A stretch of 55,396 bases of DNA, counting the filler, from Sphacelaria rigidula (taxonomy: Eukaryota), in NCBI GenBank assembly GCA_964200075.2. It is 6 parts of 6 records of this genome, joined end to end, with 100 filler letters (N's around TTAATTAATTAA, not from the genome) between each part and the next. Parts side by side here need not be neighbours in the genome. Positions count along the whole stretch, not along the records: positions 18,501 to 27,649 come from CAXNAA020009175.1; 5 more parts are not named here. One strand, given 5' to 3'. Under the pieces are notes generated by a model. It was given only the letters and a program-made list of their open reading frames with translations, did not search any database and was not told the DNA's origin. Every line of letters starts with the position of its first letter. The stretch's first letter is position 1. A program made the translations under genes and the position numbers. Positions 15,995 through 36,606 of the stretch are shown here, in pieces.

Positions 15995-17792
15995 CTACAG
16001 CCAACTGGACGGACAGTTCGGCTCGAAGTAATACAAATTAGCCAGAAGCATCAAATGGTCAGACGGAAACACGTCGTTGGGAATTCGGTGCTTCGCTCGC
16101 TTCGGATTTCCCCCCAAATACGGTGACCATGTTCCCTCGAAGCCTTCCTCCTCAGGCTCCCCTTTCCACCCGCTAGGCTTCCACGATCCGGGATTCGGCA
16201 CCAGATCCGTCTGGCGGACATCTCTACTCACCAAGTCTCCCATTTCGGGCATCGACAGCACCTCTCCGGGCAGCAAGCTTTGCTCGCTGAAGAAAATGTA
16301 GTCGACTGTGGCCGACCTCCTGTCGGAGAGCGTTGTGAATGCCGGCTCACCCCCGGACCAGTACGTCATGTATGCACTGCGTAACCCAAGCGCGTGTTTT
16401 TGGCGAGTGCTTCTGGCACCGGTTACTTTCAAGTACGCCAAACGCGAACAAACGTCTTCGCAAGATACCTGTCGGTACATCTGGGGCGGTGATTCACCAC
16501 TGTGTTTGCTTTTGCTGACAGTAATCAAGTCTTGTTCGCTTCGCCTCATGTCTTTGGCCCAATTCTCTGTGGAATTACCCTCGTCCGTCGTGGTCGCGGT
16601 ACTTCTCAGGAGAGAATATTCCGCCGTTCGACTTTCGCTCGTAGTCACACGAGACTGAGAGCCGTTGGTGCCGTAGCTTCCTTCAAAGCTTCGCTCACCG
16701 CCTGCATATTCCAATGAGGAGGTATCGTGGTCCTGACCCATGTGTCGCCTTCGTCCCGCACGCCTCCGTCTTCTGGGGGTTACATTGGCTGTTTTGTTTG
16801 TCTTCACAATCAGCTGGATTATGGGAAACCCAGCATCGGTTCTAGCATTGGCTAGGTCGGGATGCAGAAGAGCATCGGAGTAGCGCGGGGTTAGTCCGGA
16901 TACAGAGTCGAAGGGATGAAGCTTTTCGCTATCCAGGTCAACGAGACCGTGTATCTTGACCAACTTGCGCAACGCATAGGTGCGAGGGTCTGCAAGCCTA
17001 TCTTTCTCTCGATGTCGTGTCTCTGCGAGCTGCCGTCTTCGCAAGACACTAATGGAGGCGGCGCCTAGCAGTACCTTATCTTCTGGGTCGTTACCCGCTA
17101 GTTTCGGCATCCGAATCGGCTCCGATCTTTCCCCCAACGGTCCTTGACCAAGAGAGTTTACCGCGGACACTCTGAATTCATAAGCTACGCCCGAGCTGAG
17201 CCCCGTGACCACAGCCGACCTTGAGGGGTTCTGCACCGTCCGCGCGTTTCCACTTTCCGTCTCCACCGTATCATACATTAAACAATTGGATTCGAGGACG
17301 TCAATGCTTTCTCCAGAGAGAAATCTACTGCCACCAGGAACCCAAACTATCTTGTATTTATCCACCAGGGGGGACAGGGACTCGCTGTCTATTGGTGGTG
17401 GCGCCCAACGTAGTCGGACGCTGCTTGTCGATAGGGGTTCAACTGAAGGCTTGCCGGCCGGTCTTGGTTTGGCCGGATCTTGGGCTTCCACACCTCGACA
17501 AAGGATTTCATACGTGCCGCTGCTAGGCAAACAGTTCATGGTGCCGCACATGACTACCGGCAAATGAAAATCGGCGTTAAATGCCTCAATCATTCGAGTC
17601 AAACCACGAGCTTGGAGAGAGCGTACTTCTTCGGCTAGGGGTGTGTGTCCGTCATGTAGTTGTGTGCATACGACGCATGCCCCCGAGGGGTGTTGAGAAT
17701 CTTGCCATGGTCGGAGTAGCACCATGAGAGCCACGTCGTCGCTTGCGGCTGCCTCGCTTGCCAATTGTCTTTCTTCTTTGTCCTCTCCTAGT
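15995..17792 (-). CDS. CCR4/nocturnin/Angel-like EEP (endonuclease/exonuclease/phosphatase) protein with inserted fibronectin type III domain; last exon only
   Basis: Acceptor tttgtttcag| at 17793, then an open frame to TAG at 15995. EEP motifs: DDVALMVLL, VVCTQL, PVVMCGTMNCLPSSGTYEIL, HALGLRSAY, EPAFT, TVDYIFFS, IPNDVFPSDHLMLLA. FN3 at ~17105-17476 (SSVRLRWAPP, YKIVW, VTGLSSGVAYEFRVSAVNSLGQGP). Upstream exons were not found on this contig. Confidence 0.88.
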
Positions 17793-18400
17793 CTGAAACA
17801 AACGTTTCACGAATTCGGCATTAACCTTCATGTTTGAAACGAAGATAGTCGCGGCCGTTGACTGACCGCGCCCCAAGAGCTCAACGGGGGTAGATGGCGA
17901 CACAGTCGATCTCGCGAAAGAACGAGAAGACGTGCGGTAAGTTCGTGGAATTATTACTTCTGCAGCTTCCTCGAAATAGTTATACCTTGCCAAATTACTC
18001 TGATACCACGTAGACTCAAAGATCGACAGATGAACCCTTCAAATGCGAAACACGGATGGGTACTCGACCACAACAACAAGTTCATCGAAGTATTTCACAA
18101 ATCTAGTTTAAAAACGCAACTTTTAACGGCGGTACCACCATATTTACGAGCTCCTTTTGCAGAGCAGCCAGCTCGGTTCTACGAAGCCATGAATATACTG
18201 TACACAGTTTTTTTCGCCATGCTTTTAACCCCCCTTGCAAGATACGGTTTAAGGACAAGCGTGGCGCAACGAAGCACGGTTCAAATCACAGTCTCGTGGG
18301 GGAGGGTTTCGTGAGTTCACAGTGTCCGTGCAGAAAATAATGTTGTTGTTGTTGTTGTTGTTGTTGTTGTCTTCACATTGAAAACCGTTCCGATATCTGC

Positions 18401-19322: not shown

Positions 19323-22300
19323 CGGGTGCAGGGACAGCCCCGATCTAGCGTTGCACTGCACGCTCATGCCCTCGGAGACGACGTAGTGGAACCAAAAACT
19401 CGGGATGTACAACATCTCACCAGCGGATATGACGGTATCCACAGCCGGAACTGTAGCAAAGCCCTTCAGGGTGAGGAGGGGGGGTGGGGGGTGTACTCAT
19501 GATTTCGCATCTTATAGTCATATGGCCATTGACCTTGCATCCCGACAAAGCCAGGACGGGCACGCCGGGTTTTCGCCAAACTATGCCCGCAATCAATCAC
19601 CGAGCGCGAAGCGCCATCATGTGTTCGGCGAGTTGCATACAAGGGTGAGCTGCATCCTGCTAAGATTGTTCGGTACGAAGCGTATTGATTACCTCGCATG
19701 TAGATGTCAGTCGCCAATGAGTTGCTTATTTTCTGGTATCTCCACTTCCAGAGACAGCCATGGGTTCCGCACTACCTTATAGGTGTCTCGCCATATACAC
19801 ACTAAGTAGTACTATCATCCCCTTCGCGCGGAATTGACGTTCTCACACCCCGCACAATGTGATCTAGCTCGACCACCATCATGGTTACCGCAAAAAACAC
19901 GCAAGGGCGAAAAAAACCCAGGTAACCTGCTGGTTGCCGAGCTCACGCAATGAGTGGTGCGTTTCACAGCGTCATTGCCAACCGACATCGACCCCATGGG
20001 GGGAGGGGTGGCGTTCTCCGTTCTTGCCTGCCTGAGTCATTTGACCATTGACCAGACACCCCTTTCGAGATGGGGGAGGGCGGAGGGGGGGGGGGAGGTA
20101 TTCGAACTAGAAAAATACGATCATCATGAAGTAACGGAACTAAAAACATCAGAGGGGACGTAAAATGTGACCCTCAATCATCATGAAGTAACGGAACCAG
20201 AAACAACAGAGGGGACGCGAAATGTGGCCCGAAGAGGACGCAATGGAAAGAAACGAAGGAAAATAGTCAAGAAAAAAAGCTATCTCACGACAGGACTCGA
20301 GGAATGACACAGCCCAGTATATTGTAACGAGCGTCCGTGCGGGAAAGTTGAAGCGGGATAAATAGAACGAAAAGGATGAACACGAGACGCAAATGGAAAC
20401 GAAAGATATAGGGCATCAATAGGTATCGACGATGACATTCCAGGTGGCCCAATTCTCAGTAAAGGCGACACAAGCACCGGCCACTTCGTCATATAACTTA
20501 CACTCCTCTTTTGTTGCGGTAATCTCAGATGGTGATTGAGGTCATGGTAACTTATCCTATATTTCTCGAGGGTAAAAGCGAAGCAGGAAGAAACCATACG
20601 AGCAGACACAAAATGGACAAGGATGTAGTACTGCAGGCGACAAGAGTGGAAAGGCGAAAAACGACAGAAGAAAAACAACAAAACATATAAAGAAGAAGCC
20701 AGAGCGTGTAAATGCTGCACTTCCCGTCATATTTACGTCATATGAGTCCCCGTTGTAGGAACTCAACAGTTCACAAAAGCATGTTCAAGAACAGTAGTAA
20801 GAACGACTTGAAAAAGGATATCAGTCTTCATCCTTTGACCGCGAAGGCAGGTCACCTGCTGAGTCGGCGATTAAGCCGTCGAGCTCGGTTCGACTTGACA
20901 TTTTTCCGATTGATATACAATAATAGCCTCTCTTGAGCATATATTTTCGGCGTGCGTCACCCCCGGGAGGCCCCTACCACCCTCCCGAAGGGGAACCTTG
21001 TATTATATACATTATATAGCATATATAATATAAAGGAGCAGAAGCAAATATACACCCCGCAAAGCCCACCAGACTTTTCGGATTTTGTCTATGTTCATTG
21101 ACCAATTTCTTGCAACAAATTTTGACCACACTTCACCCTGTGATTGATCCAATATCTTATCACCTACCGCACCATGCCGTTACGCATTCAATTTACGTCA
21201 GTTACACATGCACATGATCGGGTCGGGGCATACTCGACTACCATATCCCGAGAGGGGGGTGTACTCACAGGGGACGACACGTTGGAGACTTGTATTGATA
21301 TGTGTGTGTGTTCCCTCGCACTTTGAACCCTTCCCCTTCCTCGTGATGATGAGTCTGTGGTCTCAAGGGATCAACCCATCTTTCCCCCGGTACGTGCCTT
21401 ACATTTTGGTCTCGCGGATTGGGTCAGCACTTCCGCACCGCGTCAACTCACGTCACNNNNNNNAAAACCCAACGCATCAAGAATCGAACTCTCGTTCTCT
21501 CCACCCTAATGGCGACAGTCGGACCATTACACCACCGGGTAGCAGCGGCTTGTGTGTACACACATACACAATGTGTAAAGAGATGATGATGAAACCTATA
21601 GTCGTTCGAATCGGGGAGAAAACTGCGTGCAACGAGAAAAACGAAGTAGAATACCCACACACATTGGAGCATGGCTCACGCCGGAGTAAAAGTAAAATAC
21701 CCCCACACACTGGAGGATGGCCCGCACCGGAGTATTGCTTTCACGACAGAGTATGACGTATGCCCCGGAGTATGATATATCCACCTGAACATGACACTCG
21801 TAAACACACACCGAGGACGCACTACAAGGAGAATACAAGTTGGAACATAGTTGAAGACGTACACACGAATAGTGACGCAGATACACACCTCAGGCCACTC
21901 CGATTCGTTACTCCAGTCCACGTCAGAGTGCCGGTAAGAAGGATGTTTCGCGTCTTTGATGATGGCCAGGTGTGGGCAGGCGCTCGGAGCATTCAGGAGG
22001 TACCGTTTGCGGCCATGCAGCATAAGCACGAAATTTTGCCCGTGATCATAATGGCTTTCGGCGATGATGCCCCGTGCTCCGAATCGACATCGGATACCAT
22101 TTTGACTCGACACCTGCACCATTCGTAGAATTAGTGCCGGACAAACAGACACGAGTATTATATCGAGGAGTGTAGTGTTGGAGATGCACAAAACATCAAA
22201 GACGGGGAATGTTGAGATGTGTGAAAAGCGTTGTGAGGGATAATAATCATATATATAGATATACAAGGCCCCCCTTCAGGAGGTTGGTACGGGGCTCCCG

Positions 22301-25300: not shown

Positions 25301-27159
25301 TGCATTGTCGTAGCGGCGCAACACACACACACACAGGATGTGCTATTCTGGTGATTGTTCGGCCGATTGTATCGCAAATTCACGAGAACAATCCTCGATC
25401 AGCGCAGACTTGTGGTTCATTCACCCTCGAGAAAACGATGGCTTCTACTTAAGATCTGCATGTACTGTACAGGAAGTGATTGTAATGACATTCATGAAAG
25501 AACTACAGTATCGCTTGAAGGTCACGAACGGCCTAAGTTGGTACCTTCTACTGTAGCGCCTACAGACGATCTGATATCTACATCTACAGGAAAACAACGA
25601 GCGATACCCGTGAGGTTGTGGTCGCAAATCCCCCCAATGTACGCCACGCACACCTATATTGATGGATATAACAATTTGTGGGAACCATCACATAGAAGGA
25701 ACCAATTCTCACAAGTTTTTTGTCAAGGAATCACCTTTTCACATTGGCGACACCATGAGATAGCTCGTATGCTTCACGAACAGAAGGTCCTGCGTTCAAA
25801 TCCCGGATCCCATCAAAATGGTGGGAGCCAAAAAAATGGTGGATCCCCTTTGAAGCAGAGTTCAAAACTCAAGGAAAATCTTCTGCGACGATTGTTGGTG
25901 GGGAGACCCCACACGCGTAGAAGATATGTGACATATAAGGTAAAATCCAACCGCTAGCCGGCGTGAAAGGTTACTCCTACAAAACCTCCAAAAGGTTCAT
26001 GAAATGGAGGTAGCGATGTGGGTAGCACCACATCGAAGGCACAGAATCTCACAAGTGCCTGTCCAGGAATCACCTTTTCACATATTGCTGCGAAGAGTAT
26101 CCTCGATATACATCCGCGATGAAGACCTTTCCGGTCCTTGTTGCGGACAAGGTCAGGCATTTCTAATTCACCGCAGTGTGCGGTAGGTGTGTGGCCAAAA
26201 TGCGATTACAACACTAGACCGTCTTACATTCGAGATGAAGAAATTTTCGTTCTTCGTGCTGAAGAATGGCAGGTCGTTAGCCACGAACGATCCCATACTG
26301 GCAGTAGTCTCGGCGCCAGCCAGCACTCCTGTTTGGCGCGCACCAGAATTAAATGTAAGAAGCAGCGTCAACAACAATGACAATAACCTGACGCTTTTCC
26401 TCCGCATCAAGCACTCAACCACCGTTCAACTTTCCACTTGTGGACCCATCCAACCAACTACCGACCAATCAGCTAAACATGCAAAATCCAAAGAACGAAC
26501 TTACCGCATCTCCTCATCCACCCACCCAAGCAACCGACGACGGTGTAATTCGTGAGCGGACCGCGTGCGTTTTGGACCGCATCGAATTGTAAACACCCCT
26601 ATGGTTAGTGTTAGGATTAGGAGTAGGGTGAGGGTGGGGGGCGCGGCCTCCGCAGGAACTGGCCCGAGTGATATTGAAAAACGTCGGTCCCGGGGTGTTG
26701 TGAACTCTGATGCGATCCAAAAAGCACGCGGTCCACTCACGCATTACAACGGGTTAACTAGCGAAGTATGCAACTCATCGAGCAGACCAACCACCAACCC
26801 ACCCAAGCAACCGACGACGGAGTAACCAACCAAACAATCAACCAGCCAGCTAACCTACCAGCAAGCCTAGCCACCCACCCGACCAACCGACTACCAATAA
26901 ACCAACCATCTACTACGTCACCAATTAACCAAATGACCGACTGTGTTGTTTCCTATCTCACTCTGCATGAAATAGTAGTGTGGATCGCTTGGACCGATCC
27001 TGTTCTCGTCCGCCTGCCTCGCCCACTCTCGCCATTGATCAAAGCCCATATACTGACGTGTGGTTGGGGGCGACCAAGTGCCCCCCTCCGCTGGACCTTT
27101 ATGATTCATCTCCCAAAGCATTTTACCGTTCATTTTCCAAAACATGAAGCGGTTAGTAT
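19323..27159 (-). CDS. JmjC/cupin-like Fe(II)/2-oxoglutarate oxygenase, partial (4 internal exons)
   Basis: Phase-consistent GT-AG exons 27159-26962, 26328-26228, 22113-21889 and 19463-19323. Peptide: TNRFMFWK...WSPPTTRQYMGFDQWREWA...HYYFMQRVLAG...NDLPFFSTKNENFFISNVSSQNGIRCRFGARGIIAESHYDHGQNFVLMLHGRKRYLL...HPSYRHSDVDW...GEMLYIPSFWFHYVVSEGMSVQCN. The HxD...H triad is intact and the 2OG-binding Lys position is present. Confidence 0.9.
24274..24557. repeat. Array of 36-bp palindromic repeats with short related spacers (probable DNA-transposon subterminal repeats)
   Basis: The unit CTT(C/G)TCGCCATAAG-TCCTCTCG-CTTATGGCGAGAAG (best copy 24356-24391) occurs about five times with 14-28-nt spacers. 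The last two units are inverted (e.g. 24522-24557). Related motifs occur at ~23617-23712. Confidence 0.8.
25677..26082 (+). mobile_element. Miniature LTR retroelement (TRIM-like) with ~67-bp LTRs and an internal tRNA-Val-like segment
   Basis: Direct repeats 25677-25743 and 26017-26082, both TGTGGG...GGAATCACCTTTTCACA (TG..CA, ~80% identical by manual count). PBS TGGCGACACCA at 25745-25755. Purine-rich tract GAAATGGAGGTAGCGA at 26001-26016. tRNA-like segment at 25766-25806. Confidence 0.75.
26544..26748. mobile_element. MITE with TGT...ACA ends and 4-bp TSD (Ginger-like), telomere-like core
   Basis: ~55-bp TIRs TGTAATTCGTGAGCGGACCGCGTGC... / ...GCACGCGGTCCACTCACGCATTACA. ACGG is duplicated at 26540-26543 and 26749-26752. 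Internal GGTTAGTGTTAGGATTAGGAGTAGGGTGAGGG. Confidence 0.75.
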
Positions 27160-27749: not shown

Positions 27750-30700
27750 GATCTCCGGCCGAAACCGCGGGACACTAATCAAGCGTTGCTGCTAGGTTGC
27801 GGGGTGGTGACCTCAACGGTAGATTGTCTGGGTGCGACAATTGGGTCGCTGTTTGAAAGCCTTGCTGATCTGGACGACCTTTCCCTCGAGAGTTCAAGCT
27901 TTGGCGGCAGCGAGAGCGATTTTCAGGCGGAAGCGCAGCTAGTCTATCGGGGTCTAGAGGATCAAATGATGGGAAAGCGATCCAACGAAGCAACCGCTAC
28001 TGCCAGCGGTCTATCACCAGGGGACCTTACCTCCACAGGGCCGAAGGATTCAGAATCTGTGATATTTTTGGACGAGCCGCAGGTGGATACACAACAATTG
28101 ACCTTGCGAGGAAATGCCCTGTCAGACATGGCGGCCACGTATTCGGTACTCGACTCTATTCTACAGTTTGTGCGAGAGCTATCCACCAATGCCGCGTCTG
28201 CCCCAGCTATGGTGGAAGCAGGTCTTGTGTCGTTGCTGGTACAGGTTCTGCGAGCAGTACGAGGTATTCGCGACCCAATCCTTTCTGTCGCGGTGGAGGT
28301 ACTGTGGAATTGCCTCGAGCACAGCCAGGAATCTATGAGCTACGGATCGCCCGCGGCAAGCCGCACGGAGCTCGTCCGCAAAGCACGGAAGAGTAATGCA
28401 GCCTTTGCACTGTCCACCTGGGACGGCGTGTCCGCACTGCGAGATACTCTGGAGGCTCTTCTTGTCGGCGGCTTTCGCAAAAAGGAGAAAGAACTACGAA
28501 ATGAAGCAGTGATTGTTGCGAGCTTGCTCTCGAGCAACGGCCGCAGTCATTCCATATTTCGTAGTACGGGGATGCTCCAGTTACTATTGCGCTACGCTAC
28601 CGCCGTCGAGACAGGGCTAGCCGACGGTGACCCACAAGCTGCTGAATCGGAGGATAGAACGTCGGCGCTCGCAGCGGACGATCGTAGCACTAGTCGTGGA
28701 ACGGTCCGAAAAGATGTGCCAGAATTGGGAGAACTGGCAGATCCAAGGAACTTTGCGACAACAACCGAAGTCGATCTAGAGTTGAAGTTACTGCTGTGGT
28801 CGCTGCTTGCGGAGCTGTCGAAGCGGGATCCGCAGAATTTAGAGGTCATCAAAGCGTCGCCACTGGTGGGAATTATGCTGATGTACATGGACTTGGTTGT
28901 TGAGGAAGGACCATGTTCAGATGCAGCGTCCACGGGTCTGAGCCGCTCTGTGTCCCTGGCGTCCATGCCCTCCGCGGGCAGTAGCGCGAGTCAGGCCACT
29001 ACAACAGCTGTCGGAAGTTCCGACGAAACGGGTTTAAAAGCGGAAGTGCGCCATTCTACTGGAGCTTCGGGTACATTGGGCAGCCCGCACTCGGCGTCAG
29101 CACCTGCTCGTCGTGCTTCACCTTTAACCAAAGGTACACCCTCCGGTTCCTATCCCAGCGAAAGCCCAACTACCCCGCACAAGAAATCATCCGATACCTG
29201 GGAGAGAGAAACAATTTCGCCTTTTGCTGAAGGAGATGCGGAGCCTGGTGAGCGACCAGTAATGGGAGCCACCCAGCTATACGTTCCGGCAACGCTTGTC
29301 CGACTTCCGGTGACCTCTATACAACTGCTGCAGGGCCAAGCAATGGCTTCACTCCTAGTGCTGGCGCCCAGATTTCCGACCAAGTTCCAGGCGCTCGGCG
29401 GGCACATCGTGACTCTTCGTTTTCTGGATCGGCTTGGACCCCGCCGTGAAAATCAAGCCTTGGTCAAGGCTGCTACGAAGATGCTTGCCACGGTAGTCGG
29501 TCTCCCCGGGCTCAAGGAAGAACTCGGTCGGATGGACGCTGTGCGAATAATGCTCGAGAGGCTTTCTGAAGAGGGGAAACGCGGATCGCAGAGGTGTACT
29601 GGGGACATTGGTAGTGGGGGGAGTTCTTCCGGTGTCAGCGGCGGTAGCAGCGGAGCGGGTACTACAGAAGGCAGTGGGGGTGGGAATGGCGAGGGCAACG
29701 GCGACTTGCGTACCGACACAGTCATCATTCTGTGCCGTCTGTGCGAAGACTGCCATGACAACCAAGAAGCCTTTCGGAAAGCCGACGGCGTTCCAACTAT
29801 GATGGCGGCCATCAAGAGCTACTGCCGCGCTCGCAGCGACACGAAGCAGCACGAAGCAGGCCAAGTTGGTGCGGGGGATAGCAGCGGAGGTGGGCGAGCG
29901 AGGAATGGAGTAGCGGGATCCGACATACCGGTGGTAGGCCTTGGGGGGGGTGAAGGGGTCAAAGGTCCGGGAGGATCGAGTGGCCTTGACCCGGCGCTTG
30001 TGCACGTCGTTGACTGTATTTGGTGTGCTGTAGTCGGAAATCGGCGCAGCGAGGCCAGGTTTTTGCAATGCGAAGGTTTGGACACTTTGCTGGATCTCTT
30101 GGAGCTTTGTCCGGTTGTCATGCGACATCAGGTGAGCCCGACCAGAGATCCCTTCTTGTAAGAACTTCTCGTCTTGTTGTAAGGAGTGGTAACGATCGAA
30201 AAAGGTTGAATGCGTGTGCTGAAACTATTGAGATGGCTCCGGGTTTTTCGTGGTATCTCAGCGCACCATATTCTGTGATACGCAGACAAGCAGGTTGGGT
30301 TTATTCTGCGTCATCCTTCTGCCTTATTGCTGTACTAGAGGTGGGCAACGCTTCCGTGCACACCCAATCTACCATTGTGGTTAACACCTCCCTTTTAGAA
30401 GATAGGTGCGCTTGCACCGGCTGTGGTGGTCTTGGTTCTAAGATGCTTTTGCACAAAAAAACTGACAGACGGCCGTTGTTGGGGAGACGATGTCTGCCAT
30501 TTTGACACGCGTGCTTGTACCGGTAGGTGTGCGCATGGCGCTCGATCAACTAAGGTTTCGTGGAGAGAAGCACGTGAGTGCCCCGTTCGCTTCCATGCTT
30601 CCCCCTCAGCAAGAATCGCGGATCGAACACCATTTTACGATTATTTATCACCACTCGACAGGTAACCGGTGTCGTCGCCGACCTCCTCCGCAACAAGCGC

Positions 30701-35838: not shown

Positions 35839-36096
35839 TTTCGGTATATGTGGGCGATTCAGCGGGGATCACACAGGAGGAAGGCGAACGCCGGAGTTTC
35901 TTCTTTCTTATTTTGGTTTAGTACTCTACCTTCCTTCTGCCGTGCTTGCCTATTTTTTATCGCGAGAGGGGTTCAACGCTCCTGTTCAATGTATGGTGTG
36001 TGAGAAAAAATCCCACATCTTGCGACTGCACTGAGATTCGAACCCACGACAAAACCGCCAGAAGGTTTCGAGGTTACCAACTGAGCTGCCGGGGCG
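35839..36096 (-). mobile_element. tRNA-derived SINE, copy 2
   Basis: Minus strand CGCCCCGGCAGCTCAGTTGGTAACCTCGAAACC...GTGGGTTCGAATCTC (A and B boxes), with the same tail as copy 1. Confidence 0.75.
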
Positions 36097-36136
36097 CAAA
36101 CTGAGGCACCATGGGGCCGGTCGTCGGGGCGCCGGT

Positions 36137-36606
36137 CGCCCCGGTGGCTCTGTTGGTAACCTTGAAACCTTTTTTTGACGATTGGGTCGTGGGTTCGAAT
36201 CTCGGTGCAGTCACGTGATCTGGGATTTCTTCTCACAGCAGCCGATCATCCATACTGAGGCAAGATATGAATGGATGGAAACATATCTCGAAGATTTGGT
36301 GTGGATGCGAAGATTTTAATTTTCCGGTTATCATCCTCAATGAAAAGCTCCATCCTTAAAATGGATGATCGGCTGTTTCACACCGTCCCCAACAGTGGAG
36401 AACCACTATCTAGGTCGTGGGTACATAAAATTCGACTTCACGGTCGACGAGGGAAATGGGGCGCTTAACCCCTTTCGCGATAAACAGTAAGACAGGCACG
36501 GTAGAAGGAAGGTGGAGTGCAAAAACGAGCTAAACGAGAAATAAACTCCTGTGCTGACCTTCCTCCTGTGTGATCTCGACTGCATCGCCCACAACATGTA
36601 CCGAAG
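36137..36606 (+). mobile_element. tRNA-derived SINE, copy 3 (interrupted by a MITE)
   Basis: CGCCCCGGTGGCTCTGTTGGTAACCTTGAAACC...GTGGGTTCGAATCTC head. The body resumes after 36377 and ends CCTTCCTCCTGTGTGA...TACCGAAG. Confidence 0.75.
36237..36377. mobile_element. 141-bp MITE with 4-bp TSD nested in SINE copy 3
   Basis: TIRs AGCAGCCGATCATCCAT...ATGGATGATCGGCTGTT. TCAC is duplicated at 36233-36236 and 36378-36381. Confidence 0.75.

Follow-up and report, generated by a model that had tools for sequence, protein, structure and literature searches.

In the stretch of Sphacelaria rigidula DNA that we analysed (the window: 55,396 nucleotides, a chain of contig pieces of about 9 kb each with N runs between them, taken from a genome of 244 Mb in which plastid genes are present) an LTR-flanked element of 406 bp occupies window positions 25677–26082, in the part taken from contig CAXNAA020009175.1. 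The initial annotation had described it as a tiny LTR retroelement with terminal TG..CA repeats of 67 and 66 bp, a PBS one base behind the 5' repeat and a purine-rich tract ahead of the 3' repeat, and all of these parts as well as the total length could be confirmed in the sequence (Table 1). A single spacer base separates the 5' LTR from the PBS at 25745. The flanks AATT and TATT are indeed imperfect copies of a target site duplication (TSD), the two LTRs are 81% identical, in agreement with the about 80% given for an old copy, and no retroelement protein motif was found, as the sole open frame crossing the element (25355–25957) shows no Pfam match. A T6 run at 25716–21 in the 5' LTR is private to the window copy, the T run of the family being a T4 near the LTR end. 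A cupin-like frame is located about 3.4 kb away from the element.

Table 1. Features of the LTR element and its flanks, with positions in the window.
Feature	Position	Strand	Basis or remark
Left TSD copy, AATT	25673–25676	+	sequence; family TSD length 4 bp
5' LTR, TG..CA, 67 bp (family: 66 bp)	25677–25743	+	sequence
Family T4 in the 5' LTR	25736–25739	+	sequence
PBS TGGCGACACCA, for host tRNA-Ser(GCU)	25745–25761	+	complementarity to the tRNA 3' end
Stretch AGCTC-GT-A(T/C)GC behind the PBS	25762–25772	+	two readings possible
tRNA-derived segment, tRNA positions 26–65, gap-free	25767–25806	+	matrix and covariance model
B box GTTCAAATC; A2 form GTTCGAATC	25794–25802	+	consensus GTTCRANNC
Acceptor-like 3' end, CCCATCA in the window copy	25807–25815	+	family form (A/C)TCCC-A-CCA
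Hairpin, CCA-like end paired with TGGTGGGAGCC	25805–25829	+	folds
Second TGGTGG repeat	25837–25844	+	pairs with the PBS in folds of 4 of 5 copies (folded from the PBS onward)
PPT	26001–26016 (approx.)	+	G run in most family copies, eroded in the window copy
3' LTR, TG..CA, 66 bp	26017–26082	+	sequence
T4 of the 3' LTR	26075–26078	+	sequence
Right TSD copy, TATT, one mismatch	26083–26086	+	sequence

An old family of TRIM elements

A DNA search of the genome yielded 289 first-look candidates, and the 40 of them that were scored gave 44 matches, nearly all full length and with 78–84% identity. In motif searches the tRNA-like core was counted at 92 places, the LTR end at 185 and a T-arm variant at 90. 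After removal of duplicates we located about 170 distinct copies with the tRNA-like part, so that the element is not single-copy; 100 of them belong to subfamily A1, 29 to A2, 13 to the loosely defined A3, and 28 are unassigned. Five places were left out of this set as they appeared by eye to be other repeats. A1 and A2 are the two clear subfamilies, with lengths of about 406 bp (median 408) and about 460–490 bp (median 472), respectively. Many indels are found across the family, and the tRNA-like segment, PBS, PPT and 4-bp TSD recur from copy to copy, showing that the window does not simply contain a one-off SINE insertion.

In the 78 full-length copies with TG..CA ends the 4-bp TSD is perfect in 15 and carries at most one mismatch in 41, compared with 0.8 and 6.9 in a control with shuffled pairing, and a TSD of 5 bp occurs in none of the 78. 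The LTR pairs are on average 79% identical in 78 A1 copies and 76% in nine A2 copies, and with a maximum of 91% no young copy was seen among the pairs compared. Together with the star-like tree of the A1 copies, these identities indicate old bursts. Solo LTRs also exist, one of them (L184) with a perfect 4-bp duplication. One T4 is located at LTR position 59 in both A1 and A2, and the longest T run of the interior is two, a scarcity which is not significant since 77% and 69% of shuffled sequences are also without a T4. With its short TG..CA LTRs, a length below 1 kb, PBS, PPT, non-coding interior and dispersed copies with TSD, the family is a TRIM family, that is, one of non-autonomous LTR retrotransposons, with at least two clear subfamilies and an old insertion in the window. 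Scans of metagenomes gave no match in one case and nine matches in the others, all of them without LTR or tRNA context, and family fragments lie inside longer contigs of two runs presumed to be RNA, contigs which are uninformative on starts, strand and polymerase.

The elements are primed by the host tRNA-Ser(GCU) and integrate with 4-bp duplications. In its full form the PBS is exactly complementary, over 18 nt, to the 3' end of this tRNA plus CCA, and the window copy carries a 17-nt form with one G fewer, which is found in two thirds of the copies (with G to without G: 29:61 in A1, 5:18 in A2 and 2:8 in A3). Because both forms occur in every subfamily and are scattered over the star-like tree (12 changes against a shuffled mean of 15, on a weak tree), they would fit source elements with the short form and a full PBS repeatedly re-copied from the primer tRNA. 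Priming of the element by its own internal CCA end was considered and rejected as unnecessary, as the PBS matches the host tRNA-Ser and its full form is present in all subfamilies.

Mobilisation probably occurs in trans by Ty3/Gypsy elements using the same primer. A decayed element (L114) with reverse transcriptase, RNase H and integrase in Gypsy order shares the PBS and has a different LTR, and GCTCGTAC likewise stands behind its PBS. An autonomous element with the family LTR was not present among the LTR matches listed (100 of 185). Animal Helenus elements, which depend on Gypsy, have 4-bp duplications and are primed by the 3' end of a tRNA, according to the accessible part of Kojima 2024 (PMC10886601). 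The Sphacelaria genome also contains a second TRIM-like family (L116 and L118) with the same PBS and no tRNA-like part.

The tRNA-derived segment behind the PBS

A tRNA-like segment with CAC at the anticodon position and a B box had been proposed for 25766–25806, and the sequence reads as quoted there. Using a position matrix built from 43 host and organelle tRNAs of the assembly, whose own median score is 42.1, the window copy scores 38.3, and the background of 107,934 windows has its 99.99th percentile at 7.8 and its highest value at 32.5. This top background score belongs to a SINE-like copy at window position 36166. A custom covariance model made from 30 tRNA 3' halves finds the segment with 18 bits and an E-value of 0.0036 (E-values of this model are rough), the best of four matches in 55 kb. 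Applied to 29 other loci, the same model finds the segment in 21 (E < 0.01 in 11 of them) and gives four matches elsewhere; it also finds the segment in six of nine LTR-selected A2-type copies, three of them at E < 0.001. The check by covariance model thus turned out positive for the custom model and negative for the Rfam tRNA model, which matched neither the window copy nor the better-preserved copies L021 and L205, both showing only a weak match to the tmRNA T arm in Rfam; ARAGORN called no tRNA in these three copies either. No tRNA-like match lies in either LTR, the one match being located 24–63 bases behind the 5' LTR. The tRNA-like segment is real, represents the 3' half of a tRNA and immediately follows the PBS as a fixed part of every subfamily. 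An HMM search placed the LTR directly upstream of it in 121 of 130 copies, and inspection of the other nine by eye revealed LTR or PBS remnants in six and an interruption in three.

A free SINE with the same head is not among these 130 copies, nor among 47 further places, which comprise 42 family copies and, by eye, five other repeats. The initial designation as a SINE/TRIM hybrid is therefore unproven, and an assignment to SINE2 (tRNA-derived SINEs) was rejected, as no free copies with a head of A and B box and a LINE-type tail were found. Other tRNA-derived repeats are present in the genome, with different heads. L164, at first a candidate for a sister family sharing the LTR but lacking the tRNA part, was also discarded: it is a single case whose interior holds a piece of a different repeat, and this interior was found at 11 other loci, none of them with the family LTR.

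Within the segment an unpaired anticodon arm (CAC at 25775–77) is followed by the variable loop AGGTC and the T arm. Among 115 A1-type copies the T stem survives in 88 with four to five pairs; the anticodon stem is lost, 82 of the copies having two of its five pairs, and there is no D arm. None of seven folds gave a cloverleaf and the folding z-scores are about zero in five of them, the two strong folds belonging to one copy with a perfected hairpin. The acceptor-like end has two bases less than a full acceptor strand, and in A2 the same pairing of the CCA end with TGGTGGGAGCC closes an insert of 40 nt. Two readings fit the stretch at 25762–25772: it may be what is left of tRNA positions 9–13, corresponding to the first half of an A box and joined to position 26, or it may continue the pairing with the primer into the T arm of tRNA-Ser. 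In two intact copies the 11 bases after the PBS lengthen the tRNA-Ser duplex in register (−45.0 kcal/mol versus −35.3 kcal/mol for the PBS alone), a gain that is not significant alone (shuffle fraction 0.07).

The identification as tRNA-Val found no support. Positions 34–36 read CAC in 80 of 100 A1 copies, CAT in 18 of 29 A2 copies and CGT in another five of the 29, and the best of the 43 tRNAs, plastid Val with 26.4 of 40 positions, is only one to four bases ahead of Asp, Ile, Thr and Met. With these varying triplets, the missing D arm and the unpaired anticodon stem, a tRNA-Val gene or mimic was rejected; the mimic is weak in structure and as a priming aid also unnecessary, as the PBS provides an 18-nt match to host tRNA-Ser(GCU). 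Pattern searches for the source gene, two of which listed 100 of 154 and 100 of 212 places, brought up nuclear tRNA genes for Ala, Thr, Phe, Ile and Pro; among the matches listed there was no nuclear tRNA-Val gene, nor any gene matching the segment, so that a nuclear Val gene is still conceivable. The family end (A/C)TCCC-A-CCA resembles the end of a mature tRNA, two bases short, and hence hints at a capture from RNA. The tRNA half was likely captured once by a template switch of the reverse transcriptase and then kept in the source elements. Capture of tRNAs by LTR elements is seen in this genome, where five of nine matches consist of an LTR followed by about 53–85 nt of antisense primer tRNA.

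To judge the conservation of the segment we compared the majority sequences of A1 and A2, which differ at 2 of 40 sites in the tRNA part (many A2 copies in this comparison had been picked through their T arm), at 42 of 189 sites in the rest of the interior (p 0.006) and at 5 of 66 sites in the LTR. Outside the tRNA part the two interiors are also separated by indels of 20 and 40 nt, and the tRNA part itself is indel-free. In a set of nine A2 copies selected by their LTR the tRNA part differs at 4 of 40 sites (p 0.056), and in four full-length copies selected in this way at 6 of 40 (p 0.17). The only T-arm difference between A1 and A2, in the nine-copy set too, is position 57 of the B box, which is A or G. 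Of the first 30 copies, selected for their similarity to the whole element, 18 have an intact B box, versus 12.3 expected from the decay rate of the family; it is also intact in 59 of 100 A1, 22 of 29 A2 and 9 of 13 A3 copies, many of which were picked via the B-box motif. The letters of the anticodon arm are conserved as well (17 of 18), and compensatory changes of the T stem between the subfamilies were not found. A constraint on the tRNA part is no more than likely, because the excess shrinks once the T-arm-picked copies are left out.

Possible roles of the tRNA half

Our leading interpretation, held tentatively and with less than even confidence, is that a B box acting at the DNA level has been conserved and would support, from downstream, a Pol III start in the 5' LTR and an end at the T4 of the LTR. 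A DNA-level B box is favoured because the D arm and the anticodon pairing are lost, both of which are needed for a tRNA fold and neither for a B box. Bound to the B box about 50 bp behind the LTR, TFIIIC would direct Pol III to start within the very short 5' LTR and ahead of its T4. The polymerase would pass this T4, lying so close to the start, and terminate at the T4 of the 3' LTR. The outcome would be a short R region as in Cassandra, and the element would be a TRIMp3 with the promoter core once in its interior and not twice in its LTRs. Pol III genes with only a B box work together with upstream elements. Neither a constant TATA-like word in the LTR nor a common A-box match in LTR or PBS was found, the latter by a regular expression in 170 copies with six copies at the most frequent offset. 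The sole A-like word, TAGCTC-GTACG, overlaps the PBS end 33 nt ahead of the B box; we take it to be one letter off the 11-nt A-box consensus, and as an A box it would presumably direct the start into the PBS and result in an RNA unable to replicate. A standard promoter of A and B box is excluded for this reason.

The anticodon-arm letters are dispensable for a B box, so their conservation counts against the B-box-only reading, and the second family with the same PBS and no tRNA-like part counts against a Pol III role. It is possible, though in our view rather unlikely, that the B box of the captured tRNA half sets the start in a 66-bp LTR on its own, from outside the LTR and behind the PBS, and makes the family a distinct TRIMp3 architecture. 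If true, the 3' LTR and the solo LTRs would be left silent, the LTR would be free to shrink, such elements would be invisible to screens seeking tRNA sequence in LTRs, and TRIMp3 would be extended to algae with red-lineage plastids.

Close to the Pol III reading, although doubtful in its own right, comes the idea that the tRNA half acts as RNA, namely as a structured leader behind the PBS for primer placement or as a packaging or dimerisation signal for Gag and reverse transcriptase of the partner, the transcription of the element then being due to Pol II acting at the LTR, or to read-through. For Ty1 it is described (available text of PMC4974528) that primer packaging requires sequences 3' of the PBS which pair with the T and D arms of the primer, and here the 11 bases behind the PBS could add about 10 kcal/mol of in-register pairing with tRNA-Ser. 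The presence of GCTCGTAC behind the PBS of the Gypsy element, the CCCACCA:TGGTGGG stem kept in A1 and A2 despite a 40-nt indel, and a conservation that spans all 40 nt and thus exceeds the B box also argue for an RNA leader. Against it stand the missing cloverleaf, the z-scores near zero, a T stem without compensatory change, and energies of the stem and the primer extension that stay within those of shuffles for each copy (fractions 0.07–0.25).

It is improbable that the segment is a mere passenger, i.e. a functionless tRNA or SINE head that came to lie behind the PBS in a single capture and has travelled with the element since. A pair of tRNAs with CCA ends is described at the PBS of one Culex Gypsy element in the available part of PMC3286476, tRNA capture is seen in the same genome as stated above, and the least biased set gives only p 0.17 for conservation. 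A passenger would however hardly be indel-free and nearly unchanged when the other interior differs at 22% of its sites plus the 20- and 40-nt indels, and no multiplying lineage without the tRNA part was found, L164 being a one-off. If the segment is a passenger after all, the family is an ordinary old TRIM.

Still less probable would be TFIIIC binding at the B box without Pol III transcription, as a boundary or by keeping the chromatin open where the 66-bp LTR provides no more than a weak Pol II promoter. Sites of the 'extra TFIIIC' type have a B box and lack an A box; the element resembles them, and such a site would fit the missing A box and TATA, but the hairpin and the conservation outside the B box would be left unexplained. 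Finally, a SINE-like short Pol III transcript starting in the PBS at the weak TAGCTC box and running to the T4 of the 3' LTR is highly improbable, as is a use of this non-replicating RNA as decoy or regulator: the word lies within one letter of an A box and at 33 nt from the B box, but A14, which is invariant in A boxes, is missing, the spacing is at or below the usual minimum, and the RNA would bring the element no direct advantage.

Relation to known TRIM and TRIMp3 elements

To our knowledge, Cassandra is the only LTR element experimentally shown to be transcribed by Pol III. The family presented here is real and its layout was not found in print, making it a variant, known from old copies, on the published TRIMp3 idea. 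One could test cleanly on this family whether a replicating RNA can be started in the LTR by a downstream B box that has no A box, or whether a piece of tRNA serves as packaging or priming signal, and the genome shows tRNA capture by the LTR machinery by preserving primer read-through products. The initial annotation had called the element a candidate new Pol III-linked TRIM, without naming Helenus or TRIMp3. The novelty stands for the internal layout, as no TRIM with an internal tRNA half was found in the openly available literature searched, and does not stand for the general principle, as Helenus and TRIMp3 are already described in the accessible text of PMC10886601.

With ordinary TRIMs the family shares short LTRs, PBS, PPT, a non-coding interior and many old copies. 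The annotation of a brown alga includes TRIMs as a class (bioRxiv 10.1101/307165), and the available part of that report describes no tRNA-derived interior, which by description sets the Sphacelaria family apart; in the available part of a sugar-beet TRIM survey, tRNA-derived motifs are mentioned only in LTRs and PBSs. The nearest case to an internal tRNA half that the literature searches turned up is cqgypsy_1 from Culex quinquefasciatus, which also carries tRNA sequence with CCA ends at the PBS of a Gypsy-type element, but according to the text at hand (PMC3286476) it is an autonomous single copy with two whole tRNAs and a 26-nt duplication, in contrast to a conserved half-tRNA in a TRIM. 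Like the multipartite PBS of Ty1, in which sequence 3' of the PBS pairs with the T arm of the primer (PMC4974528, in part), such pairing may explain 25762–25772 by analogy; the Ty1 boxes are complementary to the primer, whereas the 40-nt part of the Sphacelaria family is a sense copy of another tRNA.

Cassandra and Ajax, the 5S-type TRIMp3, are likewise TRIMs with a Pol III element derived from a small RNA, but theirs comes from 5S RNA and lies in the LTRs with boxes A, IE and C (PMC10886601 and PMC7215508, available parts), whereas that of the Sphacelaria family is tRNA-derived and outside the LTRs. The RNA of Cassandra starts and ends within the LTRs, with an R of 18 bp (PMC10886601, same part). 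Also close are the Helenus elements, the tRNA-type TRIMp3, which in the accessible text of PMC10886601 are 311–1263 bp long with PBS, PPT and a non-working tRNA-derived part with box B, show 4-bp TSDs and Gypsy partners in animals, and are inferred to use Pol III. They are defined there by a tRNA part that is present in each of the two LTRs and retains boxes A and B, and are known from fungi, animals and Selaginella, the screen having covered LTRs only; the supplement contains none of the taxon words Ectocarpus, Saccharina, Phaeophyc, Stramenop, Phytophthora or diatom. A tRNA half kept behind the PBS across subfamilies points to a layout missed by such an LTR-only screen. Compared with this description, the Sphacelaria rigidula family resembles Helenus as a TRIM with PBS, PPT, a conserved box B (GGTTC) in a tRNA-derived part and a 4-bp TSD, and differs in that its tRNA part is single, behind the PBS and absent from the LTRs, and that box A (TRGCY..YGG) is not conserved, without a shared match in 170 copies. 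The family is located outside Helenus as defined in that text, though it would work alike if our tentative Pol III reading holds.

Elements sharing the tRNA-Ser primer

The tRNA-Ser PBS of the 406-bp TRIM is also found in a second, younger TRIM-like family, represented by L116 and L118, whose LTRs are 367 bp long and show a pair identity of 98.9% in L116. The PPT–LTR junction of this family resembles that of the 406-bp TRIM, and the tRNA-like interior is absent from the family. After LTRs of a family other than the 406-bp TRIM we found ~53–85 nt of the primer tRNA-Ser in antisense orientation at L075, L076, L078, L082 and L079, which represent five of the nine matches of one search. At L079 the whole tRNA-Ser including CCA is present and continues into a Gypsy RT frame. 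All five loci look like integrated plus-strand products with read-through of the primer tRNA. The tRNA-Ser PBS is also present in the decayed Gypsy-order element L114 (contig G000:C7520), in which RT, RNase H and integrase are found in pieces. Behind its PBS, as in the TRIM, lies GCTCGTAC, and an inverted second LTR–PBS copy is located 1.7 kb from the element.

Aberrant and putatively transcribed copies of the TRIM family

In the family copy at L164 the interior has been swapped for a fragment of a different abundant repeat (426 candidates), an arrangement that is a one-off. A MITE-like element has inserted repeatedly among the Gs of the PPT, in L183, L191, L239 and others, and has thereby severed the 3' LTR. 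The copies at L155, L016, L147 and L133 carry a tandemly duplicated 3' part or additional LTR pieces. The hairpin behind the T arm is a perfect 11-bp palindrome in the copy at L123, which probably arose by repair after insertion.

Reads on the tRNA-like part of the TRIM, from two runs that we guess to be RNA, form one deep contig with a depth of ~1300–1600. It contains a diverged tRNA-like part with a worn PBS upstream and CA repeats downstream, and is probably an old TRIM copy inside an abundant transcript.

Other repeats and tRNA genes

Two members of a SINE-like family of tRNA origin, which possesses A and B boxes and also includes L087, L107 and L113, lie head to head in the window. Several more repeat families possess a T-arm/B-box motif in the middle of the repeat, in some of them without a clear A box. 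Another small repeat of the window, also found at other loci, has 43-nt inverted arms and is enclosed by 34-nt direct repeats.

Positions of the features described, with the loci of the mid-repeat motif and the exon-size frames of the window
Feature	Position or loci	Remarks
Read contig	window 25766-25805
SINE-like copies	window 36001-36240
Small repeat	window 26515-26830	arms 26541-26583, 26709-26751
Mid-repeat T-arm/B-box	L088, L089, L090, L094, L096, L098, L099, L101, L106; L102, L104; L105; L315, L325, L331, L348
L079	L117:282-433 onward
Second TRIM-like family	L116:4220-5262; L118
TRIM copy, swapped interior	L164:258-858
TRIM copy, palindrome	L123:610-716
tRNA-Ile genes	L256:284-358; L353; L110	anticodon GAT
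Exon-size frames	window 27750-30161, 15995-17806, 21679-22275, 48131-48748	matches: CFAP69 ARM repeat, fibronectin type III, cupin-like and integrase core families

Among the matches listed for the tRNA-Val pattern search, those at G000:C1260, C5410, C6668 and many more were taken up by a dispersed tandem repeat of ~235 bp. The T stem of the TRIM tRNA-like segment is that of three nuclear-looking tRNA-Ile genes, whose anticodon is unusual for tRNA-Ile in the eukaryotic cytosolic set.
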